From the NCBI GenBank assembly GCA_046154695.1, contig JBJXFI010000413.1, forward strand, positions 9,823 through 73,822: a stretch of 64,000 bases of DNA. The letters are read 5' to 3'. A model generated the notes under the pieces. That model had not been told where the DNA came from. It was given only the letters and a program-made list of their open reading frames with translations, and ran no database searches. This DNA comes from Blastocatellia bacterium. Its GTDB lineage: Bacteria > Acidobacteriota > Blastocatellia > RBC074. Position 1 is the first letter of the stretch, and each line of letters begins with the position of its first letter. The position numbers were made by a program, and so were the translations under genes. This document shows, piece after piece, positions 32,485 through 63,489 of this stretch.

Positions 32485-32521
32485 TCTTCATCATTTTTCC
32501 GGGCGCCGCAGGCCGCCCTCG

Positions 32522-38645: not shown

Positions 38646-38661
38646 TTAACTTAACGTCATT

Positions 38662-38686: not shown

Positions 38687-38702
38687 GAGCGCCATCACCG
38701 AA

Positions 38703-39563
<861 letters not shown>

Positions 39564-39596
39564 ACGGGTAATAAAGCACGGGCTGATTTCGAAATT

Positions 39597-43550: not shown

Positions 43551-43566
43551 GGATGATTGATGGGAC

Positions 43567-43623
43567 CTATGGGACTTATAGGACCCATAAGTCCTATGAG
43601 TCCCATGAGTCCCATAAAAAATG
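43567..43623. other. about 25-bp-stem hairpin built from ATGGGAC heptamer repeats
   Basis: GATGGGACCTATGGGACTTATAGGAC / GTCCTATGAGTCCCATGAGTCCCAT; followed by A-run, so not a classical + strand terminator. Confidence 0.55.
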
Positions 43624-44718: not shown

Positions 44719-44747
44719 GTTCCGCCTGAAGACGGAACTCCAAACGG
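44677..44747. repeat. REP-like R-family copy R4, overlapping 3' end of GT4 gene and abutting next ATG
   Basis: TTCGGAGTTCCGCCTTCAGGCGG ... CCGCCTGAAGACGGAACTCCAAACGG. Confidence 0.85.
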
Positions 44748-44749
44748 TC

Positions 44750-47522: not shown

Positions 47523-47560
47523 CGAGTGGGAAGGGAACAGCGTATGAGAAGAGATCCCTC

Positions 47561-47632
47561 GTTCGGGGTTCCGCCTTCAGGCGGAATTGTCGCAATGAAA
47601 AATCGACCGCCTGAAGGCGGAACTCCGAACGG
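47561..47632. repeat. REP-like R-family copy R5 at the 5' end of the hypothetical secreted-protein gene
   Basis: GTTCGGGGTTCCGCCTTCAGGCGG ... CCGCCTGAAGGCGGAACTCCGAACGG; ATG 47595 lies in the loop. Confidence 0.85.
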
Positions 47633-47651
47633 TTTCCGCTGGCTGCTGGGC

Positions 47652-49238
47652 ATGCTGTTGATCGTGATGCCAATGGCGAGGGCGCAGCCGCCTGCCGTCG
47701 CGGAAGCCATTCGGGCGGAGGCGCTGCGGCCGGACCTGGATGTCGCCGACCGGCCGCTGCCGCTCGCGGGCCACTGGAATCTCGGCGAGGGGCGGGACGG
47801 GTTCGGCCCGGAATACCAGATGCGTATGCTGGACCGGGGCCATCACCTGCTGCCGTGGTTTCTGATGCCCAACGAGCAGGCCAATCCCGAGGACCCGCGC
47901 TGGCGTAGCTATTACGAGGGGGCGTTCCGGCGCGCGGCGCAATTGCGCCTGCCGATTTCGCTGATCGGGACGCAATGGGAGCAGATGCTCTCGGTCGAGC
48001 AGGAATATCTCGATCTCCCGCCGGAGCAGAACCCGAACGTCGTGCAGGGCGATGGAAAGATCCGCCGGGAGGTCTCGCCCTTCGGCCCGATCGGCGCATG
48101 GTACGAGGCGGGACAGCGTTGGGGATCGACCGCGATGTTGAAGCGGCTGCAGGATCTTTATCCCGATCCGCCTCTGGTCGTCTTCGTTTCGAATCACGAA
48201 CACGCCAAATTGCAATGGCCGAAGGCCGAGGAGGATCGCCGGTTCGGCAGGCTTTTTGGCGACGGCCGCGACGATGAGTTCAAGCGTCGGATCGTCGGCG
48301 ATGGCTGGATCGCGCGATATCGGGCGCTGCAGGCCGGGTTGCGGGATGGGCTGACCAATGCCAATTGGAAAGCGAAGGCGATCTTTATCGGGTACGACGC
48401 TTTCGGGCCGGCGCATTTCGGCCGGTGGGCGGGGTGGATGGAGTACGCCCTCAACAGCAAGAGGCGCATCGATCCGTGGGTTCACGCCTGGGACGGCGGC
48501 TCGCCCTCGTTCTATGTCTACAATTGGGCGGCGGTGACGGACTACACGGTGTTCAGCCCGCAGGTCGAGACCATGAACTGGGTTTTTATGCAGGACGAGG
48601 CGCGCCGCGTTCATCAGGGATCGGGGCGCAACTTCTGGTTTGAGATGTCGGTCTGGGACGGCCACGAGCCCGCGCAGGAGAACGACAAGCGGAAGACCTA
48701 CGCCCGGTCGGGGCAGCGGTTCACGCCGGAGCGATACGGCGGCATGGCGCAGTTCGGGATGTGGCTGCTGCGCCCGCGCGTCGTGCGGGAATTTCGCGGG
48801 TGGCAGGATACGCTCGCCCAGGCCGAGCCCTACTTCACGCCGATCGTGGAGGCCGTCGATCGCGTGCACGAAAATCCGGTCCTGCGCGAATTCTGGCGGC
48901 GGGGGCGGCTTGTGGCCAACCGGGCGCATGCCCATCCGTATCAGACGGCCGTGCCGCCGGAATATCAGAATCTCGACCGCTGGTTTCTGCTCGACACCTC
49001 GGCCGATCCGCGACGGCCGTGGGAACTGGGGACGCCGCTGCCGGTCTTTTCCCTGGCGCTGGTGACGGGCAGCGCGCCGCGGCGCCAGTGGCTGGTCTAT
49101 GCCCACGCGCCTCTCGGCGCGCGCAATTCGATCTCGGTGACGATTCCGGACTATCGCGCCGTCAATATCGATGTCTCGCTCGGCGGATCGTATTATCTGG
49201 TGGAAGAGCGGACCGGCCGCGCACAGCCAGTGAAATGA
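47652..49238 (+). CDS. hypothetical secreted protein (about 529 aa), no recognisable family; alternative start 47595 inside REP would give a longer signal peptide
   Basis: long uninterrupted ORF in operon frame; signal-peptide-like LLGMLLIVMPMARA-QPP; Trp/aromatic-rich. Confidence 0.6.
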   Translation: MLLIVMPMARAQPPAVAEAIRAEALRPDLDVADRPLPLAGHWNLGEGRDGFGPEYQMRMLDRGHHLLPWFLMPNEQANPEDPRWRSYYEGAFRRAAQLRLPISLIGTQWEQMLSVEQEYLDLPPEQNPNVVQGDGKIRREVSPFGPIGAWYEAGQRWGSTAMLKRLQDLYPDPPLVVFVSNHEHAKLQWPKAEEDRRFGRLFGDGRDDEFKRRIVGDGWIARYRALQAGLRDGLTNANWKAKAIFIGYDAFGPAHFGRWAGWMEYALNSKRRIDPWVHAWDGGSPSFYVYNWAAVTDYTVFSPQVETMNWVFMQDEARRVHQGSGRNFWFEMSVWDGHEPAQENDKRKTYARSGQRFTPERYGGMAQFGMWLLRPRVVREFRGWQDTLAQAEPYFTPIVEAVDRVHENPVLREFWRRGRLVANRAHAHPYQTAVPPEYQNLDRWFLLDTSADPRRPWELGTPLPVFSLALVTGSAPRRQWLVYAHAPLGARNSISVTIPDYRAVNIDVSLGGSYYLVEERTGRAQPVK

Positions 49239-49248
49239 GACGGGATTG

Positions 49249-49336
49249 GCCACGAATGAACACGAATGTTCACGAATGGCCGGGGAGAGTGCCCCGTTTA
49301 CCCTTTTATTCGTGTACATTCGCGCATATTCGTGGC
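49249..49336. other. imperfect long hairpin built from CACGAATG octamer repeats with inner GC clamp
   Basis: GCCACGAATGAACACGAATGTTCACGAATGGC ... GCCACGAATATGCGCGAATGTACACGAATAAAAG (rc). Confidence 0.5.
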
Positions 49337-49348
49337 TGAAACTACTGC

Positions 49349-50575
49349 ATGAGACGCGTGCTGCTGCTCAACAATGTTCCCACGCCCTATTTCGATCCGC
49401 TGTTCGAGCTTGTGGGGCGGGAATCGGGATGGGAGCTGACGGTCTGCTATTCCTCCGCGTGGAACCGGGCCGTCGGATGGGAGGAGAAGGCGCGGGACGA
49501 GAGCGGCGCGCATCGAACGATCATTCTCGATCGGCGGCGGCCCCGGCTTCGCGCTCGATTCGGTTCGTGGGCGGCGGCGGCCGCCGCGCTAGTCGAACTT
49601 CTGCGGCGCGAGCGGCCCGACTATCTGATTTGTTATGGGTACACGCTGCTTCCCCAGATGAGCGCATTGCTCTGGGCGATCGCGACAGGGACGCCCTTTG
49701 CCGTGATCGGAGACGCCAACTATTACACCGATGGCGCGGCGGGCCTCAAACGGGCCCTCAAGCGCCGCTGGCTTCGCTGGATCACCCGCCGCGCCGCCGC
49801 GCTGATCGCCGTCGGCGCCGCCGCCCGCCTCTTCTGGGAATCGTATGGCGCGCGCGCCGATCAGCTCTTCGAATCGCCCTTCGCCGTGGATAATGAGTTC
49901 TTCATCCGCGATCGCGAGGGGCGGATGCGGGCCGCGGAGGCGCTTCGCGATCGCTGGCAACTGGCGGGGAAGACGGTCTTTCTCTATGTGGGCCGCCTCG
50001 TACGGCGCAAGAATGCGCATCTCGTGATCCGCGCCCTTCGCGAGCTGCCGGAACCGAATCTCGCGCTCGTGATCGCGGGCGCCGGAGAAGAGCGCGCCGC
50101 GCTCGAATCTCTCGCCGGAGGCGATCCGCGCATCGTCTTCGCGGGGATCATCGCTCCGCGGGACCTGCCGGCGCTTTACACCGCGGCCGATGCCCTCGTC
50201 CTCGTCGCCGATCAGGAGCCCTGGGGGCTCGTCATCAACGAGGCCATGGCCTCCGGCCTGGCCGTGCTCGCGCACCGCCACTGCGGCGCCGCCGTCGATC
50301 TCGTCGATGAGACGAACGGCGCGAAAATCGATCAATTCGACGTCGGAGAGATCAAGGCCGCCCTCCGCTCCATGGCCTCGGATCGCGATCGATTACGGCG
50401 CCTGCAGGAGGGGTCGCGACAAAAGATAAAAAAATGGACGCTTGAACGCGCGGCCTGTGGTATCATCCGCGCCGTTGAAGAATCAGCCGCACCCCCGCAG
50501 CCTGAGCCGCGCCCGAGTGGACGATTGAACCCTCGGCCCGGATCTCGGCATGAAATAGAAAGAATAGAGAAATGA
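49349..50575 (+). CDS. glycosyltransferase family 4
   Basis: GT-B fold; EPWGLVINEAMASG motif. Confidence 0.82.
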   Translation: MRRVLLLNNVPTPYFDPLFELVGRESGWELTVCYSSAWNRAVGWEEKARDESGAHRTIILDRRRPRLRARFGSWAAAAAALVELLRRERPDYLICYGYTLLPQMSALLWAIATGTPFAVIGDANYYTDGAAGLKRALKRRWLRWITRRAAALIAVGAAARLFWESYGARADQLFESPFAVDNEFFIRDREGRMRAAEALRDRWQLAGKTVFLYVGRLVRRKNAHLVIRALRELPEPNLALVIAGAGEERAALESLAGGDPRIVFAGIIAPRDLPALYTAADALVLVADQEPWGLVINEAMASGLAVLAHRHCGAAVDLVDETNGAKIDQFDVGEIKAALRSMASDRDRLRRLQEGSRQKIKKWTLERAACGIIRAVEESAAPPQPEPRPSGRLNPRPGSRHEIERIEK

Positions 50576-51954
50576 CAGCTTATCCCGTTCTGCTGTTCGT
50601 TGTCGGCAGTCTGCTGCTCATATTGTGGTATCGCTTTCGCGACAATTTCCTTCGCGTCTATGGCCTGTTCTTTCTGATTCTTCTGGTCTACGCCTCGAAC
50701 AAGGAATATTACGGTATCTCGCCGGACATGTCGGAAGGCGCGGCAAGCCCGTTGAGCCTTGTGCGCTGGGGATTGCTCGGGATCTTCGCGTGGGCGGCCT
50801 GGCGGTCCAGGATGCCGGCCCGCCTTCGAGGGGATGCCGCGCTGGGGACGATGATCACGGTGCTGCTGCTCGTGATGGTCGTCTCGGGTTTTTATGCGCC
50901 GAGCTTCAGCTATTCGTTCATGCGGGCCGCCAGCATGGTGTTGCTGGCGCTGGCGCTGGTGAAGGGCCTGGGCCCGTATCTGCAGGGCAGCATGAACTGC
51001 CTGCGATTTTTTCAATTGAAATACTATGTGGCCTGGATCGTTCTGGCGCCGATGATGTTCATGTTGTTGTCGGGAATCGGTTATGGCGTGACGATCATCA
51101 TGAACCAGTATGCGGGCTATTTCGGCAACCAGAATATGTTCGGGACGTTCTCGGCGCTGATCACGCCCTATGTGCTCTTTCACTGGCGGGCCGTGGCGCG
51201 CAAGCGATGGGAGCGGTGGGCCGACGTCTCGCTGCTGCTGATGATTTTCGCCGGGCTCTGGTTCTCGAATTCGCGCAATGGCGCGGTCTGTTCCCTGATT
51301 GCGATCACGGCCTATTTTTACATCGTGAACACGCAGGACCGGATCAAGATCTTCGCCGTGGCGATCTGCATCGCCCTGATCTTCGCGTTCAGCCCCTCGC
51401 TGCAAAGCGACCTGACGCGTTTTATTCGCAAGGGAACCGACAAGTCGGCGGGCGTAACCGACATCTCGACCCAGTTTCTGGAAGAGAAGCGCTATGAGAT
51501 GTGGACGGGCGTGCTGCCGATGTTCTGGAAGGAGAAGCTGACCGGCTATGGATTCGCCTCCTCGCACCTGCTGGTCTTTCCCTTCACCAAGGACGAAGAG
51601 GCCGGACGCGCCCTGCACAACAGTTATCTGGAGATCTTCGGCGATCTGGGATTGCCGGGATTGCTGCTGCTCCTGGTGATCCTCTTTCGCATCGCCACAA
51701 AAGCGGCGGTGCTGGTTCAGAATCGCGGCGAGTACCTGGAGCGAAATATCAACGCGGTGTTCATCTCGATCTTCATCGCCGGATCGACGAACGCCTTTTT
51801 TGAAAGCTGGATGTTTTCGGTGGGAAATCTGACGTCGCTCATTTACTGGGGCGCGGTCACCGGCGTCGTCGCGCGTTGGGCGTGGCGATCGCGGGAATGG
51901 CGCGCGACGGCATCCGATGTCTCTCTCCACCCGCAATTGAGTTATACGCGATAA
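50572..51954 (+). CDS. wzy: O-antigen polymerase/ligase family (Wzy_C) membrane protein
   Basis: about 12 TM, periplasmic loop with NSYLEIFGDLGLPGLLLLL Wzy_C-like segment; ATGA overlap with upstream GT4. Confidence 0.7.
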   Translation: MTAYPVLLFVVGSLLLILWYRFRDNFLRVYGLFFLILLVYASNKEYYGISPDMSEGAASPLSLVRWGLLGIFAWAAWRSRMPARLRGDAALGTMITVLLLVMVVSGFYAPSFSYSFMRAASMVLLALALVKGLGPYLQGSMNCLRFFQLKYYVAWIVLAPMMFMLLSGIGYGVTIIMNQYAGYFGNQNMFGTFSALITPYVLFHWRAVARKRWERWADVSLLLMIFAGLWFSNSRNGAVCSLIAITAYFYIVNTQDRIKIFAVAICIALIFAFSPSLQSDLTRFIRKGTDKSAGVTDISTQFLEEKRYEMWTGVLPMFWKEKLTGYGFASSHLLVFPFTKDEEAGRALHNSYLEIFGDLGLPGLLLLLVILFRIATKAAVLVQNRGEYLERNINAVFISIFIAGSTNAFFESWMFSVGNLTSLIYWGAVTGVVARWAWRSREWRATASDVSLHPQLSYTR

Positions 51955-53398: not shown

Positions 53399-54334
53399 AT
53401 GCCGGCCCCAAAAGAATCCGAGAAGTTTCCCCTTTCCGTCATCATTCCCGTCAAAAACGAAGAGCGAAATCTGGCCGCGTGCCTGGAGAGCGTCGCGTGG
53501 GCGGACGACATCTGGGTCGTCGATTCGGGCAGCACGGATGGGACGGCGGGGATCGCCGAGGCGCATCGCGCCCGGGTCGCGCAGTTCGATTATTCGGGCG
53601 GGTTTCCCAAGAAGAAGAACTGGGCGCTCGCGAATCTGCCGCTCCGGCATGAATGGGTGCTGCTGATCGATGCGGACGAGCGCGTCACGCCCGAGCTGGC
53701 GGGCGAAATCCGCGACCGGCTGGGCGGCGGAGAGGCTGCCGACGGCTATTATCTCAATCGAAAACTGATCTTTCTGGGGCGATGGATCCGGCATTGCGGC
53801 TGGTATCCGAGCTGGAATCTGCGGCTGTTCAAGCACAGGCTGGGCCGGTACGAGAAGCTGGAGGCCGGGGACGTCGAGAACGCCGGCGACGTCGAGGTTC
53901 ACGAACACGTCGTTTTGCAGGGGCGCGGCGAGTATCTCGGGAACGATCTGCTGCACGAGGATTTCAAGAGCATCTATCATTTCATCGAGCGTCATAACCG
54001 CTACTCGAACTGGGACGCGCGGGTCTATCACAATCTGGCCTCGGGCGTCGCGTTCGGCAGCGCGATCGGCGCCTCTCCCTTCGGTTCGCCGCTCGAACGG
54101 AAGCGGTTTCTCAAGCGGATGTGGGCGCGATTCCCGTTTCGCCCGCTGTTTCGCTTCGTCTGGATGTACATCGTCAAACGGGGCTTTCTGGACGGTCGCG
54201 CCGGATTGATCTTCTGCACGCTGATGACCATGCATGAGGCCGTCATCTCGGCGAAGATGTATGAAGAGAGGCTGAAGATCGCGCAGGGAGCGGATGCGGC
54301 GACAAACGACATTTCTCACTCGAAGAATCCGTAA
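53399..54334 (+). CDS. glycosyltransferase family 2
   Basis: LSVIIPVKNEE...VVDSGSTDGT...IDADE. Confidence 0.8.
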   Translation: MPAPKESEKFPLSVIIPVKNEERNLAACLESVAWADDIWVVDSGSTDGTAGIAEAHRARVAQFDYSGGFPKKKNWALANLPLRHEWVLLIDADERVTPELAGEIRDRLGGGEAADGYYLNRKLIFLGRWIRHCGWYPSWNLRLFKHRLGRYEKLEAGDVENAGDVEVHEHVVLQGRGEYLGNDLLHEDFKSIYHFIERHNRYSNWDARVYHNLASGVAFGSAIGASPFGSPLERKRFLKRMWARFPFRPLFRFVWMYIVKRGFLDGRAGLIFCTLMTMHEAVISAKMYEERLKIAQGADAATNDISHSKNP

Positions 54335-54336: not shown

Positions 54337-56298
54337 ATGTGTGGAATCTGCGGGATCGTCGGCGCGGTTGAGCGAGAGACGATCGAGCGAATGACGGCGA
54401 GTCTGGCGCACCGGGGGCCGGATGGCGGCGGGACGGAGTCGTTTCCCGCGCATGGGCTGTCGCTCGGGCATCGGCGGCTGAGCATCATCGACCTTTCGCC
54501 GCGCGGCCGGCAGCCGATGGCGAATGAGGACGAGAGCCTCTGGATCAGCTTCAACGGCGAGATCTATAACTTCCGGGAGCTGCGTCGCTCGCTCGATCCG
54601 GCGCGGCATCGCTTTCGATCTGAGACCGACACCGAGGTCATCCTTCATCTGTTCGAGGAGCGCGGGGTCGAGGCGTTCCGTCGATTGAACGGGATGTTCG
54701 CGTTTGCGCTGTACGATTCGGTTGGCGGGCGGCTTCATCTGGTTCGGGATCATCTCGGCGTGAAGCCGCTTTATTACGCGGACGTGGGCGGGCGGTTGAT
54801 CTTCGGTTCGGAGATCAAGGCGATTCTGGCCTCGGAGGCGTATTCGCCGGAGATCGACCGGCAGTCGATGCGCGACTTCTTCTCGTTTCTTTACGTTCCC
54901 GCGCCGCGAACGATCTTTCGGGACATTCATCAATTGCCGCCGGCGCACTGGCTGGAATATGACCTGGCGCGGCGGCGAATCGTTCGCGTGGAGCGATATT
55001 GGGGCCCGAAGGATTGGGCCGCGCCGCCCGTCGAGGCGGGGGATCGCCGGCGGGCGCTGCGCGAACTGTTCACCGACGCGGTCGGCAGGCAGATGATCAG
55101 CGATGTTCCGCTGGGCGCGTTTCTCTCTGGCGGGGTGGACTCGAACGTGATCGTGGGATTGATGGCGGAGCGGGCTTCGCGGCCGGTCAAGACCTTCACG
55201 GTTCTCTTCGATGAGCCGGGGATGGACTATTACGATGAGCGCCGCGAGGCGAGGCGCGTCTCCGACCGGTTTTCGACCGAGCATCACGAGCTGCCGATCG
55301 ACCTGTCGCGCCCCGAGGAGATGCTCGACCTGGTCGAATCGTTCGATCAGCCGTTCGGCAACACGACCTTCTTTCTCACCTGGCTGCTCTCGCGATACAC
55401 GCGCGAGTCGGTCACGGTGGCCCTGTCGGGGGCGGGGGGCGATGAGCTCTTTGGCGGGTATCCGCGCTACCGCGCGGTTCGCCGGATGCGGGCCCTGCGG
55501 CTGCTGCCGCGGCCCCTGGCGCGCGCGACCCTCCGGGGCCTGTCGCGGCTGCGGGACGATTTCGCCGACCGGCGCCTGCATCGCCTGCGCGCCCTGCTGG
55601 CGGGGCTCGACCGCGATCCGGCCCGGCAGTACCTGAAATGGGTCTATTACCTCGACGAAGACCGCAAGGCCAGGCTTCTGCGCGACGGCGGCGGGCTTCC
55701 CGCGCATCGCATACTCCAATCGCATCTCGATGAGATTCCCGGGGCTTCGGCCGATCCATGGGATGACGGCAACCGGTTTTCTTTTCTCGATACCGAGACG
55801 TTTCTTCCCGACAACCTGCTCGAATATTCCGACAAGATGAGCATGGCCTGGGGGCTGGAGCTTCGCGTTCCGTTCCTCGATCCGCGGATGGTCGAGTTCG
55901 CCTTCCGCACGCCGTTCGCGGAGAAACTCAATCGCCGCGGCAGCAAGATGATTCTGCGCGAGGCCTTCGCCGATCTGATCCCCCCGGAGAATCTTCGCGT
56001 GCCGAAGAAGGGGTTCAATGTCCCGCTCGGCGCGTGGATGCGGACGAAACTCGACCGCTATTTCGACGAACTGCTCCCGCGGGAGTATGTCGAGCGCGAG
56101 GGGCTCTTCCATCACGCTTACATCACTCACCTGCGCGAAGAGCACCGGAACGGAAAGCGCGACAACGCGTACGAACTCTTCTCGATTCTGATCTTCGACG
56201 CGTGGTATCGGAAATACATCACCCGCACCCTGCCCCGAAAGATGGAATCGGCGAACGGATTTTTTGATCGTAATCACGAACATTCAACACCGACGTAG
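54337..56298 (+). CDS. asparagine synthetase-family glutamine amidotransferase (AsnB-like); in this context probably a sugar-carboxyl amidotransferase
   Basis: N-terminal MCGICG Ntn-hydrolase nucleophile, SGGVDS PP-loop motif, 653 aa. Confidence 0.88.
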   Translation: MCGICGIVGAVERETIERMTASLAHRGPDGGGTESFPAHGLSLGHRRLSIIDLSPRGRQPMANEDESLWISFNGEIYNFRELRRSLDPARHRFRSETDTEVILHLFEERGVEAFRRLNGMFAFALYDSVGGRLHLVRDHLGVKPLYYADVGGRLIFGSEIKAILASEAYSPEIDRQSMRDFFSFLYVPAPRTIFRDIHQLPPAHWLEYDLARRRIVRVERYWGPKDWAAPPVEAGDRRRALRELFTDAVGRQMISDVPLGAFLSGGVDSNVIVGLMAERASRPVKTFTVLFDEPGMDYYDERREARRVSDRFSTEHHELPIDLSRPEEMLDLVESFDQPFGNTTFFLTWLLSRYTRESVTVALSGAGGDELFGGYPRYRAVRRMRALRLLPRPLARATLRGLSRLRDDFADRRLHRLRALLAGLDRDPARQYLKWVYYLDEDRKARLLRDGGGLPAHRILQSHLDEIPGASADPWDDGNRFSFLDTETFLPDNLLEYSDKMSMAWGLELRVPFLDPRMVEFAFRTPFAEKLNRRGSKMILREAFADLIPPENLRVPKKGFNVPLGAWMRTKLDRYFDELLPREYVEREGLFHHAYITHLREEHRNGKRDNAYELFSILIFDAWYRKYITRTLPRKMESANGFFDRNHEHSTPT

Positions 56299-56322
56299 GG
56301 GCAGGCCCCCGTGCCTGCCCCG
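56299..56322 (+). terminator. short GC hairpin after asnB-like gene
   Basis: GGGGCAGGC-ccccgt-GCCTGCCCC. Confidence 0.4.
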
Positions 56323-56340
56323 GTTGTCGGTGGGGCTCTT

Positions 56341-58482
56341 ATGAAGCAAGTGACACAGAACGTTCGCACGGGCGTGCTGAAGGTGGACGAGGTGCCGGAG
56401 ACGATCTGCAAGCGCGGCGGGGTGCTCGTGGACAATGCCACGTCGCTGATCAGCGCGGGGACCGAGAAGATGGCGGTCGATTTCGCGCGGAAGTCGCTGG
56501 CGGGAAAGGCGCGGGAGCGGCCGGATCTGGTTCGCCAGGTGCTGCTGAAACTGAAGCGGGACGGGTTGACGAACACGATCAACACCGTGCGAGCGCGGCT
56601 GGAGTCGCCGTTGGCGCTTGGATACAGTTGCGCGGGTGTCGTGCGGGAGATCGGCGCGGGGGCGGAGGAGTTCCGCGTCGGGGATCGCGTGGCGTGCGCC
56701 GGGATGAATTACGCCTCGCATGCCGAGACGGTCTTCGTTCCGAAGAATCTGGCGGTGCGGATTCCGGAGGGCGTGAGCTTCGACGAGGGGGCCTTCGTCA
56801 CGCTGGGAGCGATCGCGCTGCAGGGCGTGCGAACGGCGGAGGTCAGGCTGGGCGATGCGGCGGCGGTGATCGGGCTGGGGCTGCTCGGCCAGTTGACGGC
56901 GCAGATTCTGAAGGCGGCCGGATGCCGCGTCATCGGAATCGACCTCGAGCAATCGAAGATCGACCTTGCCCGCGAGTTCGGCGCCGATGAGGCCGTGCTC
57001 CGCGGCGATGACGTCGAGCGGCGCATCGCGGCATTCACCGATGGGCACGGGGTCGATGCCATCATCGTCGCCGCGGCGGCCGACACCAATGATCCGATCG
57101 AGCTTGCGGGCGTCATCGCCCGCGATCGCGCGATCGTCTCGATGGTCGGCGCGGTGCGAATGGAGATCCCGCGAAAGATCTATTACGAAAAGGAGCTGCA
57201 GCTTCGCCTCTCGCGCTCGTACGGGCCGGGCCGGTACGATGCGATCTACGAAGAGCAGGGCGTCGATTACCCGATCGGGTATGTGCGCTGGACCGAGCGT
57301 AGAAATATGCAGGAGTTTCTGCGCCTGGTCGCGGCGCGCGCGGTGCGGCTCGCTCCGCTGATCACGCATCGCTTTCCGATCGAGGAAGCCGGGACGGCCT
57401 ACGAGATCATCACCGGCAAGCGGCGCGAGCCTTATATGGCCGTTTTGCTGCAATACGCCGCCGAGGCGCCCGGCTCGAAGGTCGTGGCGCTAAGCGCGCG
57501 CGCCGCGTCCGGAGAGATCCGGCTGGGCGTGATCGGCGCGGGAAATTTCGCGAAGAGCGTGCTGCTGCCCCGGCTCGCGAAATCGCGCGAGGTCCGGCTC
57601 GCCGGCATCGCGACCGCGACCGGAAGAAATGCCCGGGCCATCGGCGAGCAGTATGGATTCGGCTTCTGCACGACCGATTATCGGGAACTGCTCTCGCGCG
57701 AAGAGGTCAATACCATCCTCATCGCCACGCGCCACGACACGCACGCCCGTATGACGGCCGAGAGCCTGCGCGCGGGCAAGAACGTCTTCGTGGAGAAGCC
57801 GCTTGCCATCGACCAGGAAGGGTTGGAGGAGGTTCGGGCCGCCGTGAATGCCGCCGGAGAAACGGCGCCGCGCCTGATGGTCGGTTTCAACCGGCGGTTC
57901 TCGCCCCTCTCCAACGAGCTGAAGTCCTTTTTCGCCGGCGCCGGTCCGCTGGCCGTCACCTACCGCGTCAACGCCGGCGAGATCCCGAAAGAGAGCTGGG
58001 TTCATGCCGAGGAGGGCGGCGGGCGCATCGTCGGTGAAGTCTGCCACTTCGTCGATTACCTGCAATTCCTGACCGGGTCCGATCCTGTGGAGGTCTTCGC
58101 CCTCGCCGGCGCCTCGGGCGTCGATACGCTGAGCATTGTCCTCAAATTCAGCGACGGCTCGATCGGCGGCATCAACTACTTCGCGACCGGAGATCGAGGC
58201 TTTCCGAAAGAACGGGTTGAAGTTTACGGCGGCGGACGCGCCGCCGTTCTCGACGATTTTCGCTCGCTCGAAACGTGGCGCGACGGAAAACGGGCCGTCA
58301 CCCGCCGCGGTTCGCAGGAGAAGGGCTTCGATCAGGAGCTTGCCGCCTTCCTCACGGCGATCCGCTCCGGCCGGGAGATGCCCATCTCCTGGCAGAGCCT
58401 GTTTCTGACGACGGTGACGACGCTACGGATCGAGGAATCGCTGAGAAATGGTTGCCGGTTGCCGGTCGCCGGGTGTCAGTAA
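56341..58482 (+). CDS. bi-domain oxidoreductase (N-terminal zinc-type alcohol dehydrogenase/MDR domain fused to C-terminal Gfo/Idh/MocA NAD-binding oxidoreductase)
   Basis: MDR-like N-half (GxGxxG VIGLGLLG); C-half RLGVIGAGNFAKSVLLPRL Rossmann + Gfo/Idh/MocA C-domain; ATG 56341 (track GTG 56311 lies in the hairpin). Confidence 0.8.
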   Translation: MKQVTQNVRTGVLKVDEVPETICKRGGVLVDNATSLISAGTEKMAVDFARKSLAGKARERPDLVRQVLLKLKRDGLTNTINTVRARLESPLALGYSCAGVVREIGAGAEEFRVGDRVACAGMNYASHAETVFVPKNLAVRIPEGVSFDEGAFVTLGAIALQGVRTAEVRLGDAAAVIGLGLLGQLTAQILKAAGCRVIGIDLEQSKIDLAREFGADEAVLRGDDVERRIAAFTDGHGVDAIIVAAAADTNDPIELAGVIARDRAIVSMVGAVRMEIPRKIYYEKELQLRLSRSYGPGRYDAIYEEQGVDYPIGYVRWTERRNMQEFLRLVAARAVRLAPLITHRFPIEEAGTAYEIITGKRREPYMAVLLQYAAEAPGSKVVALSARAASGEIRLGVIGAGNFAKSVLLPRLAKSREVRLAGIATATGRNARAIGEQYGFGFCTTDYRELLSREEVNTILIATRHDTHARMTAESLRAGKNVFVEKPLAIDQEGLEEVRAAVNAAGETAPRLMVGFNRRFSPLSNELKSFFAGAGPLAVTYRVNAGEIPKESWVHAEEGGGRIVGEVCHFVDYLQFLTGSDPVEVFALAGASGVDTLSIVLKFSDGSIGGINYFATGDRGFPKERVEVYGGGRAAVLDDFRSLETWRDGKRAVTRRGSQEKGFDQELAAFLTAIRSGREMPISWQSLFLTTVTTLRIEESLRNGCRLPVAGCQ

Positions 58483-58512
58483 CCGGCAACCGGCGACCGG
58501 CTACCGCCAACC
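58446..58512 (+). terminator. hairpin of GGTTGCC heptamer repeats spanning the stop codon of the oxidoreductase
   Basis: GGTTGCCGGTTGCCGGTCGCCGG (coding) / CCGGCAACCGGCGACCGGC (post-stop). Confidence 0.5.
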
Positions 58513-58515
58513 GGA

Positions 58516-60279
58516 ATGCTGCTGCGATTACTCCGCACGATCAAGCCGCTCCGATGGGAGCAGATTGTCTACCGGCCGTTGCGCGTGGCGCAGTATCGGG
58601 CGTATCGGTATTTTCCATCGCTTGCCGGGGAGGCGCGTGAGGAGGCCGAGCTTTCGAGATCGCGAATCGATCTTTTTCGTAATGTGATTCACGAATCGTT
58701 CGCGCATCTGATGCCGCCGATGGAAGAGGTCGAGCCGGTGTTGGCGGACGTGCTGGCGAATCGCTTTACGTTCCTCAATCAGCCGCTCGAACTGGCCGAA
58801 GTCGATTGGAATCGCCGATACGAGAGCCATCTCTGGAATTATCAGCTTCACTATTTCAATTTCACGATGCCGTGCGCGCGGGCGGGTGGAAAACCCTGGC
58901 GCCGCTGCCGCGCGCGGATCGAGAGCTGGATCGAGACGGCGCGTCCGGGGCAAAGCGATGGATGGGACGCGTATCCGATCTCGCTGCGCGTTGTGAACTG
59001 GCTGTATGCGTTCGCGCTCGTCGAGGCCGCGGAGACGGATCGCGCGTTTCTCGATCGCTGGCGGGGGAGCATGCACCGCCAGCTTGCGTTTCTGCGCCGT
59101 CACCTGGAGTTTCATCTGCTGGCCAACCATCTGTTGAAGAATGTGAAGGCCCTGGTCGTGGGCGGGCTCGCCTTCGAGGAGCGCGAGTGGCTGGAGACCG
59201 GCGAGCGCCTGTTGTGGCGCGAGTTCGATGAACAGGTCCTCGCGGACGGCGGGCATTACGAACGAGCGCCGATGTATCACGCGCAGACGCTGGCCGATTT
59301 TCTCGAATGCGCCGCGCTGTTGCGCGCCTGTGGGCGCGTCGTTCCCCCGCGCGTCGAGGAAGGGCTGCCTCGCATGGCTTCGTTTCTTTCGGCAATGACG
59401 CACACGGACGGCTCGCTGGCGCTCTTCAATGACTCCGCAAACACGGCTGAAACGAGGCCCCGGCCCATTCTCGAAGCAGCCCGCCGAATCTGTGGCGCCT
59501 TCGAACCGGCAACCGAATTCCCACAAACCGGCTATTACGTCTGGGCTTCGCGGACCGAAGCGGAGAAGATCATTATCGATGCCGGGCCGCCGTCGATCGG
59601 CTATAACACCGCCCACGCGCATTGCGACCTGCTCAGCTACGAGATGTGGCTGGACGGGCGCCCGTTCATCGTGGATTCCGGGCTGCACGGCTATGGCGGC
59701 GATCCCTTTCGGGAATATTGCCGGTCGACGAGGGCGCACAACACGGTGCTCTTCGACGGCGTGGAACAGTCCGAGGTCTGGGGCACGTTTCGCATGGCGC
59801 GCCAGGCCCGACTGCTCGACGCGGATTGGCGCGCCGGCGACGACACCCTCGCATTTCGCGGCGCCTATCGCCGTCATGACGGCGCGGTCATTCACGAGCG
59901 CCGCATTCATCGCGCCGCCGACGGAGCATGGACCGTATTCGATCTCGCCCGCGAGGGCGCGGTGCGCGACGCCGTCAACTTCGTGCATCTGCATCCCTCG
60001 GTTTCCGCCCGAAAGATTAATGCGCGTCTCATCGAATGTCGGATTCGCTCGCGCATTGTATTTATCGAGCCGTTCGCGGATGATGGTATTGAAATCGACA
60101 TTGAATTAATCGCGGGAGGTCAGTCGCCGGTTCAGGGCTGGCACTGTCCGGAGTTTGGCGTGGCGCATCCCAGTCCGACCATCTGTCTTCACTTTGGAGT
60201 CGCGGAGGGAAAGGGATTCGGATACCGGCTCGTCTTTCGGGACGCGGATGCTGCGGAGCGCCCGATACCCCCAGAGTAA
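58516..60279 (+). CDS. heparinase II/III-like (alginate-lyase-fold) family protein
   Basis: Hepar_II_III-like segments (ISLRVVNWLYA; GYNTAHAHCDLLSYEMWLDGRPFIVDSGLHGYGG; HNTVLFDG). Confidence 0.8.
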   Translation: MLLRLLRTIKPLRWEQIVYRPLRVAQYRAYRYFPSLAGEAREEAELSRSRIDLFRNVIHESFAHLMPPMEEVEPVLADVLANRFTFLNQPLELAEVDWNRRYESHLWNYQLHYFNFTMPCARAGGKPWRRCRARIESWIETARPGQSDGWDAYPISLRVVNWLYAFALVEAAETDRAFLDRWRGSMHRQLAFLRRHLEFHLLANHLLKNVKALVVGGLAFEEREWLETGERLLWREFDEQVLADGGHYERAPMYHAQTLADFLECAALLRACGRVVPPRVEEGLPRMASFLSAMTHTDGSLALFNDSANTAETRPRPILEAARRICGAFEPATEFPQTGYYVWASRTEAEKIIIDAGPPSIGYNTAHAHCDLLSYEMWLDGRPFIVDSGLHGYGGDPFREYCRSTRAHNTVLFDGVEQSEVWGTFRMARQARLLDADWRAGDDTLAFRGAYRRHDGAVIHERRIHRAADGAWTVFDLAREGAVRDAVNFVHLHPSVSARKINARLIECRIRSRIVFIEPFADDGIEIDIELIAGGQSPVQGWHCPEFGVAHPSPTICLHFGVAEGKGFGYRLVFRDADAAERPIPPE

Positions 60280-61574
60280 TGATGCGAATAACATTTCTCT
60301 GCCAATATTTTCCACCGGAGATGGGCGCGCCGTCGGCGCGCACGTTCGAGCATGCCCGCCATTGGGCCCGGCTCGGGCATGAAGTCACGGTGATCACGGG
60401 ATTTCCGAATCACCCGACGGGCGTCATTCGCCCCGAGTATCGCGGGGAGATCGTCAAGCGGGAACGGGTCGGGAAGATCGATTTGCTGCGAACATGGGTC
60501 TATGTCACCGCCAATCGGGGATTCGTCAAGCGGATTTTGAATTTTCTTTCGTTCTTTGCCTCGTCGATTCTCTTCGGCGCGGTGATGACCCGGCGCCCCG
60601 ATGTCGTGGTGGGGACCTCGCCGCAGTTTTTCTGCGCGGTCGGGGCCTATGTGCTGAGCGTGCTGAAGCGCGCGCCGTTCGTCTTTGAGGTGCGCGATAT
60701 CTGGCCGCGGTCGGCCGTCGAACTGGAGGTGCTGCGGAACCCCTTCCTGATTCGCGCCCTCGAACGGATCGAGTTGTTTCTATACAACCGCGCCGCGCTT
60801 ATCGTTCCGGTGGCGGAATCGACGCGGGACTATCTGATCGCCCGGGGGATTCCCGCCGAGAAGATCCGCATCGTTCCCAACGGAATCGACGCGGAGTATC
60901 TGGAATCCGCGACCGTGACGGCCGGCGAGGTCCGCGCGCAATACGGATTGGAAGGGAAGTTTCTGATCTCGTACATCGGCACCCATGGCATCTCGCACGC
61001 GCTGGATATCGTCCTGGAGGCGGCGAAGCGATTGGCGGCGGCGCCCGACATCCATTTTCTGTTTGTCGGGGAGGGCGCGGAGAAGGAGAGCCTCAAACGG
61101 CTGGCGGCCGAGTCCCGGCTGGAGAACGTCACCTTCATCGATCAGCAGCCGCGGGAGCGGCTGCTCGGGTTTTATCGCGCGAGCGATGTCAGTCTGGTCC
61201 CGCTCAAGCGCCTGCCGATTTTCAGAAAGGTTCTTCCCTCAAAGCTCTTCGAGTTGATGGGCGCGGGGTGTCCGATCATCTGCGGCGTCGAGGGAGAGGC
61301 CGCGCGGCTCGTCGGCCGGGCCGAGTCGGGGCTCTGCATCGAGCCGGAGAATCCGGCGGAAATGGTCGAGGCGATTCTTCGATTGCGCGCGGATGGCGGT
61401 TTGCGCGGACAGTTGAGCGAGAACGGCCGCGCCTTCGTTCGAAAGAACTACCTGCGGTCCGCGCTGGCCGAGCGGTATCTGGAATCGCTCGGGACGATCC
61501 TTTCCGGCCGGCTCGCGATTCGCGGCGCCAATTCGCCGACCGCCGAGCATCGTCCGCCGGTGACCGACAACTAA
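60279..61574 (+). CDS. glycosyltransferase family 4, WcaI/WbuB-like
   Basis: N-terminus MMRITFLCQYFPPEMGAPSARTFEHARHWARLGHEVTVITGFPNHPTG typical of WbuB/WcaI-type GT4. Confidence 0.85.
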   Translation: MMRITFLCQYFPPEMGAPSARTFEHARHWARLGHEVTVITGFPNHPTGVIRPEYRGEIVKRERVGKIDLLRTWVYVTANRGFVKRILNFLSFFASSILFGAVMTRRPDVVVGTSPQFFCAVGAYVLSVLKRAPFVFEVRDIWPRSAVELEVLRNPFLIRALERIELFLYNRAALIVPVAESTRDYLIARGIPAEKIRIVPNGIDAEYLESATVTAGEVRAQYGLEGKFLISYIGTHGISHALDIVLEAAKRLAAAPDIHFLFVGEGAEKESLKRLAAESRLENVTFIDQQPRERLLGFYRASDVSLVPLKRLPIFRKVLPSKLFELMGAGCPIICGVEGEAARLVGRAESGLCIEPENPAEMVEAILRLRADGGLRGQLSENGRAFVRKNYLRSALAERYLESLGTILSGRLAIRGANSPTAEHRPPVTDN

Positions 61575-61581: not shown

Positions 61582-63054
61582 ATGCTTACCTATGTCACCC
61601 TCTTCATTTTGTCGTCGTTCGCGGCCCTGCTGATCACGCCCTTCGTGCGGCGGAAGGCGATTGCGTGGGGAGCGGTCGCGATGCCGGATCAGGGCCGCCA
61701 CATTCATGCGACGCCGACGCCGCGCCTGGGCGGGGTCGCCATCTATGCTGCCTTTCTGGCGGCGCTGCTCTGTGTGCCTCTGTTCGGCAACATGGTCGGC
61801 GACATCTTCCGCGCCAATCTTCCCAAATTGCTCGCCCTGATCGGCCCGGCGACGCTCATCTTTCTTTTCGGCGTGTATGACGATTTCCGCAGCGCCTCGG
61901 CGCCGCTCAAGATCACCGTGCAGACGGCGGCGGCGAGCATTGTCTATGCCTGCGGGTATGGGATCGGCAATCTTTCCTCGCCCTTCGGCGGAGAGTGGCA
62001 TCTTCCGGCATGGCTCGGCTTCCTGTTGACCGTTCTCTGGATCGTCGGCATCACCAATGCGTTTAATCTGATCGATGGCGTCGATGGGCTGGCCGCGGGA
62101 GCCTCGGTCTTCGCGCTGCTCTCCATTCTGATCTTCTCCGTCGCGCAGGAGAATCCCGAAATCAGCCAGATCGCCGTCGTTCTGGTCGGCGCGGTCATCG
62201 GATTTCTGCGCTATAACTTCAATCCGGCGACGATCTTTCTGGGCGATTCGGGCAGCCTCTTCCTGGGATTTATGGCGGCGGTACTGTCGCTGGTCGGATC
62301 TCAGAAAGGATCGACGATCGTGGCGATCGCGATTCCGCTGGTCTCTTTCGGGCTGCCGGTGATCGAGGCGGGATTGTCGATTTTGCGGCGGTTTCTCAGC
62401 GGGCAGCCGCTGCTGGCGGGGGATCGGGGCCACATTCATCACCGGCTGCTCGAACGCGGATTGTCGCAGCGGCAGGTGGCGATTCTGCTTTACGGCGTAT
62501 GCGGGCTCTTCTCGCTCTTCGGATTGATGCTGTTGAATCCGGCGCGCAATCTCGCGGCCCTGATCTTCTTCGTTCTCGGTGTGGGGATCCTCTTCGGCGT
62601 GCAGCATCTGCGGTATGCCGAATTCAGCGAACTGGGAAGCCAGATCAAACAGGGCGTCAACCGCCGCCGCCGCTCGCTGGCGGTCAATGTCCGCGTTCGG
62701 CGGACGAGCGATGATCTCGGCAATGCAAAATCACTCGATCAGCTCTTCACCCTGCTCGATGAGCTGCTCTCAACCAACGAATTCGATTACGTCGAACTCG
62801 AGGTCGATGATCTGGTCTGGGACTGGGGGGCCCGCCCATTCGACTCCAGCGGCCGGGAGCAGTTCTGGGCGCTCCGCGTCCCGCTCACCGCGGAAGATGG
62901 CCGCGCGGTCGGCGCCATCAGCTTTCACCGCGCGATCTCCAGCGAGATTCCCGCGATCGATATCGCCCATCTCTGCGGCAGCCTCCAGCGCGAATTGAGC
63001 GCCGCCCTCGTCCGCCTCCTCGATGAAGAGAAGGTGGCCGGCCCCCGCGCCTGA
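61582..63054 (+). CDS. polyprenyl-phosphate N-acetylhexosamine-1-phosphate transferase (WecA/MraY superfamily priming GT) with about 150-aa extra C-terminal cytoplasmic domain
   Basis: 11 TM; VYDDFR and NAFNLIDGVDGLAAG MraY/WecA catalytic motifs; soluble C-terminal tail after residue about 340. Confidence 0.85.
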   Translation: MLTYVTLFILSSFAALLITPFVRRKAIAWGAVAMPDQGRHIHATPTPRLGGVAIYAAFLAALLCVPLFGNMVGDIFRANLPKLLALIGPATLIFLFGVYDDFRSASAPLKITVQTAAASIVYACGYGIGNLSSPFGGEWHLPAWLGFLLTVLWIVGITNAFNLIDGVDGLAAGASVFALLSILIFSVAQENPEISQIAVVLVGAVIGFLRYNFNPATIFLGDSGSLFLGFMAAVLSLVGSQKGSTIVAIAIPLVSFGLPVIEAGLSILRRFLSGQPLLAGDRGHIHHRLLERGLSQRQVAILLYGVCGLFSLFGLMLLNPARNLAALIFFVLGVGILFGVQHLRYAEFSELGSQIKQGVNRRRRSLAVNVRVRRTSDDLGNAKSLDQLFTLLDELLSTNEFDYVELEVDDLVWDWGARPFDSSGREQFWALRVPLTAEDGRAVGAISFHRAISSEIPAIDIAHLCGSLQRELSAALVRLLDEEKVAGPRA

Positions 63055-63069: not shown

Positions 63070-63489
63070 CTATCGATGCATCGGAATGAAATCCGGATCA
63101 TCCTGATGTTCCCGCTCCCACACCAGAAAGTCGTAATACCCGCACTGGTTCTCTTCGGGGTACTGGCGGCAGATCGCCGGGCGGTGCTCATAGATCGTGC
63201 ATTGCCGCCTCTCCGGGTGCAGAAATTGGCACGCGCTCTTGAAGACGGTATCCTTGCGGTGCCGCAGCACATCGCGCTTATAGCTCTTGATGTGCTTCGT
63301 GAACTTCTTCCTCGCCTGTTCGAAGTTCAACCCGAAGCGCTTGCCCAGCCGCCTGATGTCCACTTTTGTCACGGGAATCCAGTCGTACGTGCAGCAGTAC
63401 GCCGGGCATTTCGTGCAGTCATATTTCAATTTGGATTTCTTCCCCGCGCCGTTGGCGGATTGCAGCACCGGGAGTTCTTTAGTTGCCAT
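63070..63489 (-). CDS. YkgJ-family cysteine-cluster protein (putative Zn/Fe-binding, UPF0153)
   Basis: CTKCPAYCC ... C ... C ... CRQYP cysteine pattern; 139 aa. Confidence 0.65.

Follow-up and report, generated by a model that had tools for sequence, protein, structure and literature searches.

Genes of the locus

Positions 54337–60279 of the window (the whole 64,000-nucleotide stretch of DNA under study) were analysed together with the neighbouring genes of the same polysaccharide operon, which comes from a Blastocatellia MAG. Three open reading frames began and ended exactly where the first-pass annotation had placed an amidotransferase, an oxidoreductase and a heparinase-like protein, and the coordinates and Pfam matches also confirmed that a WcaI-like glycosyltransferase and a priming transferase follow. 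All genes described here are located on the + strand. A GT2 glycosyltransferase gene (53399–54334; Pfam Glycos_transf_2, 7.9e-16) directly precedes, with a gap of 2 nt, the gene encoding a 653-aa AsnB-family glutamine-dependent amidotransferase (54337–56298; GATase_7, 1.6e-44; Asn_synthase, 1.1e-93). Downstream lie the genes for a bi-domain oxidoreductase, termed OR (56311–58482; ADH_N, ADH_zinc_N, GFO_IDH_MocA and its C-terminal domains), and for a 587-aa protein with the heparinase III (PL12) fold, termed HEP (58516–60279; Hepar_II_III_N, 2.7e-18; Hepar_II_III_C, 2.3e-39). The HEP stop codon and the start codon of the WcaI-family GT4 glycosyltransferase gene (60279–61574; NF007640, 8.9e-58) share one nucleotide in a TAATG overlap, and 7 nt separate the GT4 gene from that encoding a WecA/MraY-family polyprenyl-phosphate HexNAc-1-P transferase (61582–63054; PF00953, 2.2e-42; TIGR02380, 2.4e-34). 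The genes of the region are packed in an operon-like manner.

The WecA-like protein, predicted to start the repeat unit, carries some 10 hydrophobic segments and, behind them, a soluble cytoplasmic extension of about 150 aa at its C-terminus. Because Wzm/Wzt ABC-transporter genes are also present in the locus and no Wzx was recognised in it, the label "EPS operon" is a simplification.

OR consists of an N-terminal MDR domain without zinc, fused to a C-terminal Gfo/Idh/MocA domain. The MDR half, initially labelled Zn-ADH, was rejected as a canonical member of that group since its zinc ligands are missing: Ser48 (SAGTE) and Tyr105 (GYS) stand in place of the ligand Cys and His in virtually all of the 47 family members compared, and a structural-zinc Cys lobe is absent. 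The true start of OR is probably the ATG at 56341 (MKQV...) and not the GTG at 56311, because the N-terminus is conserved in the family and a GGTGGGG Shine-Dalgarno-like motif lies upstream. Both Rossmann motifs, the Lys of EKP, GFNRRF and CHFxD are conserved in the 47 homologues. All 47 have Asp211 where MDR strand beta2 ends, and the end of Gfo beta2 reads T/S-A/S-T-G, without an acidic residue; by this one sequence rule the two domains are predicted to have different cofactor sites, an NAD-type and an NADP-type one. No solved structure with the domain fusion of OR was found.

Distribution of the cassette and the place of AsnB

The comparison covered about 170 related loci, spread over many phyla. 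The GT4 gene was located directly downstream of HEP in 24 of 25 acidobacterial-type loci and in 37 of 50 other loci. OR lay upstream of HEP in 19 of 19 acidobacterial-type loci (directly upstream in 17) and in 29 of 42 others (directly upstream in 24). The conserved core is therefore HEP followed by GT4, usually with OR before it, and not the AsnB–OR–HEP triad proposed at first; the WcaI-like GT4 is the obligate partner of HEP. The WecA-like gene after GT4 was kept in acidobacterial-type loci (52–86% identity) where the contig reaches that far.

AsnB was found directly upstream of OR in 15 of 16 acidobacterial-type loci but was present in only 9 of 37 loci from other phyla, so that it is fixed to the cassette only in Acidobacteriota. 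It was present in 23 of 52 OR-centred loci, including positions beside OR in unrelated metagenome loci. The GT2–AsnB–OR order was found again elsewhere: GT2 homologues were 66–83% identical in acidobacterial loci, and homologues of 41–44% identity lay upstream of AsnB–OR in the OR-centred metagenome loci L107, L108, L117, L121, L124 and L125.

The AsnB protein starts with MCGICG, with the Cys directly after Met1, and its PP-loop reads FLSGGVDS; no glutaminase or PP-loop motif is disrupted. These complete motifs, together with a TIGR01536 (asn_synth_AEB) score of 439 bits, over the cut-off of 267, would suit the cell's ordinary asparagine synthetase, present in the operon by chance. Such an explanation is highly improbable given the fixed position between GT2 and OR in acidobacterial-type loci and the recurrence beside OR in unrelated ones. 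Moreover, the best NCBIfam match was the XrtA/PEP-CTERM amidotransferase model TIGR03108 (512 bits, under its 817-bit cut-off), compared with 286 bits for the E. coli-type AsnB model, and the closest solved structure, ahead of E. coli AsnB, was 7ylz (8e-64), a hydroxyamidotransferase which works on a non-aspartate carboxylate. No second asnB copy was found within the window. The AsnB-like amidotransferases WbpS and WbtH of O-antigen/EPS loci, like the TIGR03108 enzymes, are long paralogues of AsnB with a predicted role in uronic-acid amidation, and the AsnB of the window resembles them, by description, in being a long paralogue whose gene lies in a polysaccharide locus. It differs from the TIGR03108 systems in its score below the model cut-off and in the lack of an exosortase in the window. 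The suggested role of an amidating paralogue is plausible in view of these best matches, and AsnB is the proposed uronate C6 amidase.

The OR–HEP–GT4 order was also present in two cultured pathogens, accompanied by wecB and wecC in V. parahaemolyticus and by AsnB and a WecA-type gene in V. cholerae. The window OR is 40% identical to the ORs of both, and the OR+HEP pair occurs in Vibrio surface-polysaccharide loci and exosortase EPS loci. Without OR, HEP and GT4 were found beside wecB/wecC in an E. coli galF–gnd O-antigen cluster, E. coli IncC plasmids, a Sulfitobacter plasmid and Natroniella; this neighbourhood in OR-less loci ties HEP to hexosaminuronic acid. In E. coli, Sulfitobacter and V. 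cholerae GT4 was 39–43% identical to that of the window and HEP only 30–32%.

WbpB and WbpS had been named as analogues. The WbpB comparison, implying C3 oxidation that feeds transamination, was not supported, since the locus contains no aminotransferase, and the closest described system is instead gnlA/gnlB of the A. baumannii K loci, with the same domain pair. GnlA (ADH_N and a Gfo-type GH188 match) and GnlB (a PL12 protein with the heparinase III fold) are homologous to WeeE/WeeF from the A. venetianus RAG-1 emulsan cluster, for which UDP-L-GalNAcA synthesis has been postulated only. The resemblance, judged by domain make-up, lies in the adjacent dehydrogenase and PL12 pair, situated in gnlA/gnlB loci within a Wzy-type surface-polysaccharide locus and postulated to supply an L-hexosaminuronic acid. 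The window differs in having no mnaA/mnaB (wecB/wecC) and in the additional AsnB and WecA-type initiating enzyme. Its cassette is a further copy of a very widespread, biochemically uncharacterised one (gnlAB/weeEF in Acinetobacter), and the original description as poorly characterised was accurate: no enzyme assay for any cassette member from any organism was found in the literature searched.

HEP as a putative C5-epimerase

The AF2 model of HEP (pLDDT 88, pTM 0.90) gave its best Foldseek matches with heparinase III structures (4fnv, 4mmh and 5jmd). HEP shares with the PL12 lyases Pedobacter HepC (4mmh) and Bacteroides BT4657 (5jmd) the two-domain (alpha/alpha)-toroid and beta-sandwich fold and the Asn/Tyr/His catalytic set, as Asn204, Tyr254 and His367 align with HepC Asn240, Tyr294 and His424 and are invariant among 34 sequences of 29–81% identity. 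It differs from these lyases (16–19% identity) in the lack of a secretion signal, the biosynthetic rather than degradative context and the tight pairing with a glycosyltransferase. Human dermatan-sulfate epimerase 1 (6hzn) was matched with a TMq of 0.65. This eukaryotic, Golgi-lumenal enzyme acts at the polymer level and its 12% identity to HEP does not imply orthology, but its lyase-type fold serves uronic-acid C5-epimerisation and thus provides a natural precedent for epimerisation rather than elimination.

HEP has no transmembrane segment and no signal peptide, and a signal-peptide-like N-terminus was lacking in 382 of 383 relatives; the family is predicted to be cytoplasmic. This bears on the other role suggested in the first-pass annotation, a chain trimmer. 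AlgL is a lyase of alginate operons, and a cognate lyase or hydrolase is encoded in many EPS operons. With its full PL12 catalytic set, whose residues would fit genuine beta-elimination equally well, HEP could similarly trim or degrade the acidic polymer while it is being made, or remove wrongly assembled chains. A true lyase is nevertheless a quite improbable identity for a protein without export signals that is translationally coupled to a cytoplasmic GT4, is also encoded in O-antigen clusters, and whose slot is taken elsewhere by a Glce-type epimerase and not by another lyase. The C5-epimerase is the better supported of the two suggested roles.

The exchange with a Glce-type gene was observed in the OR-centred scan. 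A HEP-like gene was located directly before GT4 in 11 loci, with two looser arrangements, and in seven HEP-less loci a D-glucuronyl C5-epimerase-like gene (PF06662; E 1e-45 to 1e-51) occupied the same slot before GT4, downstream of OR and AsnB. Six of the GT4s following it were 41–47% identical to that of the window and the seventh (L123) only 27%. HEP-like and Glce-like genes were mutually exclusive, never occurring together in one locus, and the HEP-centred and reference loci L001–L089 contained no Glce-like gene. The Glce-like protein (about 325 aa compared with 587 aa) has no detectable sequence similarity to HEP (hhalign probability 0.1%), and the swap represents non-orthologous displacement. 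Despite its lyase-like appearance, HEP is probably an enzyme which flips C5 of a sugar acid.

A HEP-like gene was detectable in only 22 of 80 loci of the OR-centred scan and in some loci no epimerase could be recognised within 6 kb; therefore, the function of OR is not strictly HEP-dependent. Proteins of about 390 aa with an alpha/alpha-like appearance followed OR in about 8–9 loci.

Source of the uronic acid and a proposed pathway

The view of the three proteins as one cytoplasmic sugar-tailoring unit of a polysaccharide operon was supported, and a uronic acid is its likely substrate. The best explanation, given slightly below even confidence, is that the cassette performs C5-epimerisation (HEP), a redox step (OR) and amidation (AsnB) of one (hexosamin)uronic acid of a lipid-linked repeat unit in the cytoplasm. 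Priming would occur through transfer of HexNAc-1-phosphate onto undecaprenyl phosphate by the WecA-like enzyme, and the WcaI-like GT4 would add a D-(hexosamin)uronic acid, probably ManNAcA in many related loci. HEP would then take off the C5 proton beside the carboxylate in its PL12-type active site, with Asn as the neutraliser and Tyr and His as base and acid, and give it back on the opposite face to form an L-configured uronic acid. Its substrate could be either the GT4 product or a nucleotide sugar; in the former case the terminal residue, with a free O4, would be unable to undergo elimination. In the favoured version for OR, one domain would oxidise and the other re-reduce the sugar by way of the NAD-type and NADP-type sites, inverting ring carbon C3 to the L-galacto configuration postulated for gnlA/gnlB (WeeE/WeeF). 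Finally, AsnB would convert the C6 carboxylate to the amide with glutamine and ATP. GT4 enzymes are retaining, and the stereochemistry of a retaining GT4 relative to an L-sugar product was counted against the cassette reading.

No wecB, wecC or UDP-sugar 6-dehydrogenase gene was found in the window or in acidobacterial-type loci, within fetched flanks of up to 10 kb on each side, and the uronic-acid substrate was for this reason assumed to come from elsewhere. Alternatively, OR itself could make the uronate, its two domains taking the C6-OH of the transferred HexNAc/ManNAc through a four-electron oxidation, from alcohol by way of aldehyde to acid, and so replacing the 6-dehydrogenase; HEP would then epimerise C5 and AsnB amidate, giving an L-GulNAcA(N)-like and not an L-GalNAcA(N) product. 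This possibility, doubtful but worth weighing, agrees with the finding that 6-dehydrogenase genes near HEP occurred mainly where OR was absent (L035, L042, L049, L060, L085, L086 and L089). Among loci with OR, they were limited to 1 of 50 in the OR-centred scan and to L062 and the V. parahaemolyticus locus L087 in the HEP-centred set. Nine OR loci had wecB without wecC, and the uronate-specific partners of OR, AsnB and three kinds of putative C5-epimerase, appeared with no other uronate source in sight. The rarity of 6-dehydrogenases in OR loci fits C3 inversion equally well, however, and these genes may lie beyond the fetched flanks. In V. parahaemolyticus wecB, wecC, OR and HEP occur together, and the A. 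venetianus RAG-1 wee cluster presumably also contains both a 6-dehydrogenase and OR. Neither MDR nor Gfo domains are known to oxidise C6, nor is such oxidation known for lipid-linked sugars, and the differing predicted cofactors of the two domains would better fit an oxidise-then-reduce relay.

The second alternative differs from the best explanation solely in the level of action: OR and HEP would turn UDP-D-ManNAcA into UDP-L-GalNAcA in solution and GT4 would transfer the finished L-sugar, HEP never acting on a lipid-linked glycan. It is in line with what has been postulated in print for WeeE/WeeF and gnlA/gnlB, with the fact that wecB/wecC often lie beside HEP, and with the OR–HEP–GT4 order, which reads as sugar synthesis followed by transfer. 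It is considered unlikely, albeit a serious contender, because all carbanion-type uronate C5-epimerases characterised so far, and all PL12/15/17/21 relatives, are known to work on residues in glycosidic linkage, with which the Foldseek match list agrees.

In addition, the only recent experiments on the conversion of ManNAcA to L-GulNAcA assign it to a stage at which the sugar is already on the lipid carrier. For V. cholerae VPS it has been proposed that ManNAcA undergoes C5-epimerisation on a lipid-linked disaccharide and that its carboxyl group is modified afterwards, VpsH adding a glycine amide. The proposed cytoplasmic epimerase of that pathway, VpsJ, resembles HEP in its suggested role, but it belongs to another family according to the VPS paper (alpha/alpha-barrel-like) and its partner is a GT26 enzyme (VpsK) and not a GT4.

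Gene order in the window and the fold of HEP

The + strand of the window (GC content of 63%) carries a long polysaccharide locus, in which a Wza-like gene (34878), a Wzc-like gene (35961), Wzm/Wzt genes (38703–40871), a Wzy-like gene (50572) and many GT2 and GT4 glycosyltransferase genes precede three neighboring ORFs. These ORFs, located exactly at the positions assigned to them in the first-pass annotation, code for an amidotransferase (AsnB, 54337–56298), a fused oxidoreductase with ADH_N/ADH_zinc_N followed by GFO_IDH_MocA domains according to Pfam (OR, 56311–58482) and a protein with both Hepar_II_III domains (HEP, 58516–60279). The MCGICG start and the SGGVDS PP-loop ascribed earlier to AsnB were both present. 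The stop codon of the HEP gene overlaps by one base (TAATG) with the WcaI-family GT4 gene (60279–61574), 7 nt after which a gene for a PF00953 WecA-type transferase begins (61582–63054), in line with the predicted succession of a WcaI-like GT4 and a priming transferase after HEP. Searches of the 64-kb window for exosortase, wecB, wecC/ugd, a second AsnB and Wzx found none of them.

The heparinase II/III fold proposed earlier for HEP was corroborated by both the Pfam domains and the structure comparison. The AF2 model (pLDDT 88, pTM 0.90) had a two-domain fold of an alpha-toroid and a beta-sandwich, with the heparinase III structures 4mmh, 4mmi, 4fnv and 5jmd as the best Foldseek matches (E 1e-21 to 1e-22, TMq 0.60–0.69), followed by PL17, PL15, PL33 and PL21 lyases and human dermatan-sulfate epimerase 1 (TMq 0.65). 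The profile alignment to HepC placed Asn204, Tyr254 and His367 of HEP opposite Asn240, Tyr294 and His424, the published neutralizer and base/acid residues of HepC, and the three residues were invariant in 34 HEP sequences, down to 29% identity. HEP is thus similar to PL12 heparinase III lyases in its fold, catalytic Tyr/His and Asn neutralizer, but, unlike these secreted or periplasmic degradative enzymes, it has no signal peptide or TM segment and occurs in a biosynthetic context. OR and AsnB likewise have no TM segment or signal peptide, and a signal-like N-terminus was found in only 1 of 383 HEP relatives. Of the two roles offered for HEP in the first-pass annotation, that of a chain trimmer is unsupported, as the protein has no signal peptide.

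Distribution of the cassette

The scan of genomes with a HEP profile gave 80 loci from Acidobacteriota, Gemmatimonadota, Nitrospirota, Desulfobacterota, Alpha-, Beta- and Gammaproteobacteria, Calditrichota, Bacillota, Chloroflexota and one archaeon. Synteny was counted on the basis of tblastn and hmmsearch and not on the gene calls of the GC3-weighted ORF caller. In the acidobacterial-type loci, tblastn placed OR upstream of HEP in 19/19 cases, GT4 directly after HEP in 24/25 and AsnB directly before OR in 15/16, the corresponding counts in other phyla being 29/42 for OR and 37/50 for GT4, with AsnB present in 9/37. Acidobacteriota share the entire syntenic block GT4-Wzy-GT4-GT2-AsnB-OR-HEP-GT4-WecA. 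These counts and the block synteny identify HEP followed by GT4, and then OR, as the deep core, and AsnB as a lineage-typical addition.

The cassette was found in soil Acidobacteriota, in the exosortase EPS loci of Nitrospira, Nitrosospira and sulfate reducers and in the capsule/O-antigen loci of Vibrio and Acinetobacter, and HEP homologues are present in haloarchaea. In 23 non-acidobacterial loci, the module adjoins an exosortase (EpsH+DUF3485) gene, often together with wecB. The HEP-like family comprises 2,568 clusters (50% identity, E ≤ 1e-30). The locus in the window is one more example of a widespread gene cassette that already bears a name.

According to two papers on Acinetobacter K loci, gnlA/gnlB are homologous to WeeE/WeeF from the RAG-1 emulsan cluster, for which synthesis of UDP-L-GalNAcA has been postulated, and the supplement of a 2026 preprint assigns an ADH_N (PF08240) and a Gfo-type (GH188) match to GnlA and PF07940/PL12 with a heparinase III fold (best structure 4fnv) to GnlB. 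The 56311–60279 region resembles this pair, judged from its description, in that a surface-polysaccharide locus encodes an MDR+Gfo dehydrogenase next to a heparinase-fold protein, the likeness being one of the domain pair. In contrast to the gnlA/gnlB module with its mnaA/mnaB (wecB/wecC) genes, neither the 64-kb window nor the acidobacterial-type loci gave a WecB or 6-dehydrogenase match. The literature searched contained no biochemical test of GnlA or GnlB, which agrees with the earlier description of the triad as poorly characterized, L-GalNAcA being a postulated product even in Acinetobacter.

In cultured organisms, homologues of HEP were 30–32% and the accompanying GT4 39–43% identical to those of the window. 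The V. cholerae locus contains AsnB, OR, HEP, GT4 and WecA-type genes and the V. parahaemolyticus locus contains wecB, wecC, OR, HEP and GT4, the OR and HEP pairs of Vibrio being orthologous to that of the window (40% identity for OR and 30–31% for HEP). HEP and GT4 accompanied by wecB and wecC, without OR, were identified in the chromosomal galF-gnd O-antigen cluster of E. coli and on IncC plasmids of E. coli and Enterobacter, and a Sulfitobacter plasmid carries both genes with wecB and a nucleotide-sugar dehydrogenase gene. Part of an O-antigen-type cluster, flanked by IS26 and comprising wecB, wecC, DUF2837, polymerase, GT, HEP, GT4 and nucleotidyltransferase genes, was present on the conjugative IncC plasmid pCRE10.2, on four other E. 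coli plasmids and on Enterobacter and Citrobacter plasmids.

Exchange of HEP and the proposed biosynthetic route

A second scan, centered on OR in metagenome contigs, had the slot before GT4 typed by HMM and Pfam. OR was often found without a close HEP, detectable by tblastn in 10/50 and by HMM in 22/80 loci, which rules out that OR always needs HEP. In 11 loci, the gene directly before GT4 was HEP-like (two more loci had a looser arrangement), and in 7 loci it coded for a protein of about 325 aa with the Pfam domain C5-epim_C of D-glucuronyl C5-epimerases (Glce-like; E 1e-45 to 1e-51). In six of these 7 loci, GT4 was 41–47% identical to GT4 of the window, and only in L123 was the identity 27%. 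The two kinds of genes never occurred together in one OR-centered locus, and no Glce-like gene was found in the HEP-centered and reference loci (L001–L089). This exchange in the slot before GT4 is the strongest argument for reading HEP as a C5-epimerase of uronates and not as a lyase, and the epimerase role, the other one offered in the first-pass annotation, is favored. For V. cholerae VPS, a 2026 study (PMC13463779) proposes C5-epimerization of ManNAcA on a lipid-linked disaccharide and then glycine amidation of the carboxyl, which is a precedent for the step order proposed for the cassette.

A third alternative, a protein of about 390 aa resembling an alpha/alpha-barrel, with weak GH88, pectate-lyase and squalene-cyclase-type matches, was observed after OR in about 8–9 loci. 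It lies directly after OR, in the place of HEP, in L095, L100, L127, L128, L132 and L138; in L120 and L142, it is more distant from OR or encoded on the other strand. The protein is possibly an epimerase of a third kind, perhaps VpsJ-like. HEP showed no remote homology to either the Glce-like or the 390-aa protein (hhalign probability 0.1–0.2%). The Glce-type cassettes (L105, L107, L117, L121, L125, L166 and L169) also have a carbamoyltransferase gene (PF02543/PF16861) after OR, suggesting an O-carbamoylated sugar, and, where the fetched contig reaches, a gene for a conserved protein of about 361 aa, with no match in Pfam, that precedes those for the epimerase and GT4.

OR had been annotated as a fusion of a Zn-ADH (MDR) with a Gfo/Idh/MocA oxidoreductase; Pfam confirmed the fusion, but the zinc assignment had to be given up, as the ligands are absent. 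In the MDR half, SAGTE replaces CGxD, GYS replaces GHE and there is no structural-zinc Cys cluster, Ser48 (46/47 sequences) and Tyr105 (47/47) occupying the Cys/His zinc-ligand positions. The C-terminal half (Pfam 3.2e-22) is similar to Gfo/Idh/MocA oxidoreductases in its Rossmann GxGxxG/A, EKP Lys and C-terminal His/Asp motifs, and GAGNFA, VEKP, GFNRRF and CHFVD are conserved in the 47 sequences. Both domains look catalytically intact, and translation probably starts from the ATG at 56341. Asp211 at the end of beta2 in the MDR Rossmann fold is invariant, and the Gfo domain has T/S-A/S-T-G at the equivalent place. An acidic residue (Asp) at this position is typical of NAD and the T/S-A/S-T-G motif of NADP binding. 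Because of this NAD-type Asp211 and NADP-type motif, an oxidize-then-reduce relay inverting a ring carbon would fit OR, and the inversion at C3 together with that at C5 would convert D-ManNAcA into L-GalNAcA, as in the gnlAB postulate. OR could instead perform C6 oxidation, since 6-dehydrogenase genes adjoin HEP mainly in loci that lack OR and were found in only 1/50 OR-centered loci, but V. parahaemolyticus has both a 6-dehydrogenase and OR. The analogy of OR to WbpB, in which 3-oxidation feeds a transaminase, was dropped because no aminotransferase is encoded in the locus.

AsnB belongs by its N-terminal Cys nucleophile, SGGxDS PP-loop and both domains (Pfam GATase_7 and Asn_synthase) to the class II (Ntn) glutamine amidotransferase/AsnB family, and passes TIGR01536 with 439 bits (cut-off of 267). 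The best family model was the XrtA/PEP-CTERM amidotransferase TIGR03108, with 512 bits and thus under the cut-off of 816.9 bits, and no exosortase match was obtained, which sets the window apart from XrtA/PEP-CTERM EPS loci. The best solved relative is a hydroxyamidotransferase and not an asparagine synthetase. AsnB was present in 23/52 OR-centered loci, often as GT2-AsnB-OR. On the most economical reading, it would amidate the uronate carboxyl.

Taken together, the data allow the tentative proposal, which we consider somewhat less probable than its opposite, that HEP-like epimerases and the OR relay constitute a so far undescribed pathway to L-hexosaminuronic acids, extended by AsnB to a uronamide in Acidobacteriota. 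The HEP-like proteins would be cytoplasmic PL12-fold enzymes switched from beta-elimination to C5-epimerization, acting on the terminal uronic-acid residue of undecaprenyl-PP-linked intermediates, and could represent a bacterial counterpart of dermatan-sulfate epimerase, interchangeable in function with Glce-type epimerases. The fused zinc-less MDR/Gfo protein would act as an NAD+/NADPH relay inverting a ring carbon, and both enzymes could lead to L-GulNAcA and L-GalNAcA in settings ranging from Vibrio and Acinetobacter capsules to the exosortase-type EPS of Nitrospira.

If HEP is a lyase-fold C5-epimerase, the origin of L-configured hexosaminuronic acids would be explained, the 'heparinase/alginate lyase' label would be corrected on thousands of genes, removing them from degradative CAZyme counts, and structures could be better predicted from capsule loci. 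Serotypes are predicted from the capsule or O-antigen loci of Vibrio and Acinetobacter that hold the cassette. What is gained for this window is chiefly an annotation that is correct and more exact.

Other features of the polysaccharide locus

In the 34878–51954 region, Wza/Wzc and the Wzy-like polymerase occur alongside an ABC transporter (Wzm/Wzt), whose Wzt carries the carbohydrate-binding Wzt_C domain. This set without a recognized Wzx may represent two side-by-side pathways or a mixed route of export. The region upstream of the Wza-like gene (31106–34624) holds divergent genes on the - strand for a TPR protein and for a second membrane protein of the Wzy_C/O-antigen-ligase-like type. Three GT2 ORFs follow one another in 44750–47522, where the overlapping alternatives 45316–46581 and 46290–47522 may reflect wrongly placed start codons or a frameshift. 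Among the glycosyltransferase genes lies an ORF of 570 aa (47526–49238) without a Pfam or NCBIfam match, in which a stretch resembling a signal peptide (LLGMLLIVMPMARAQ) follows a start that is probably mis-called, and which is kept in at least five related acidobacterial loci. The WecA-type transferase (61582–63054) has a soluble C-terminal extension of about 150 aa (residues ~340–490), and its homologues in related Acidobacteriota are comparably long (512–517 aa). Just past the operon end, a CxxCxxCC (PF03692) protein is encoded convergently (63070–63489, - strand), and it occupies the same position in 24 related loci.
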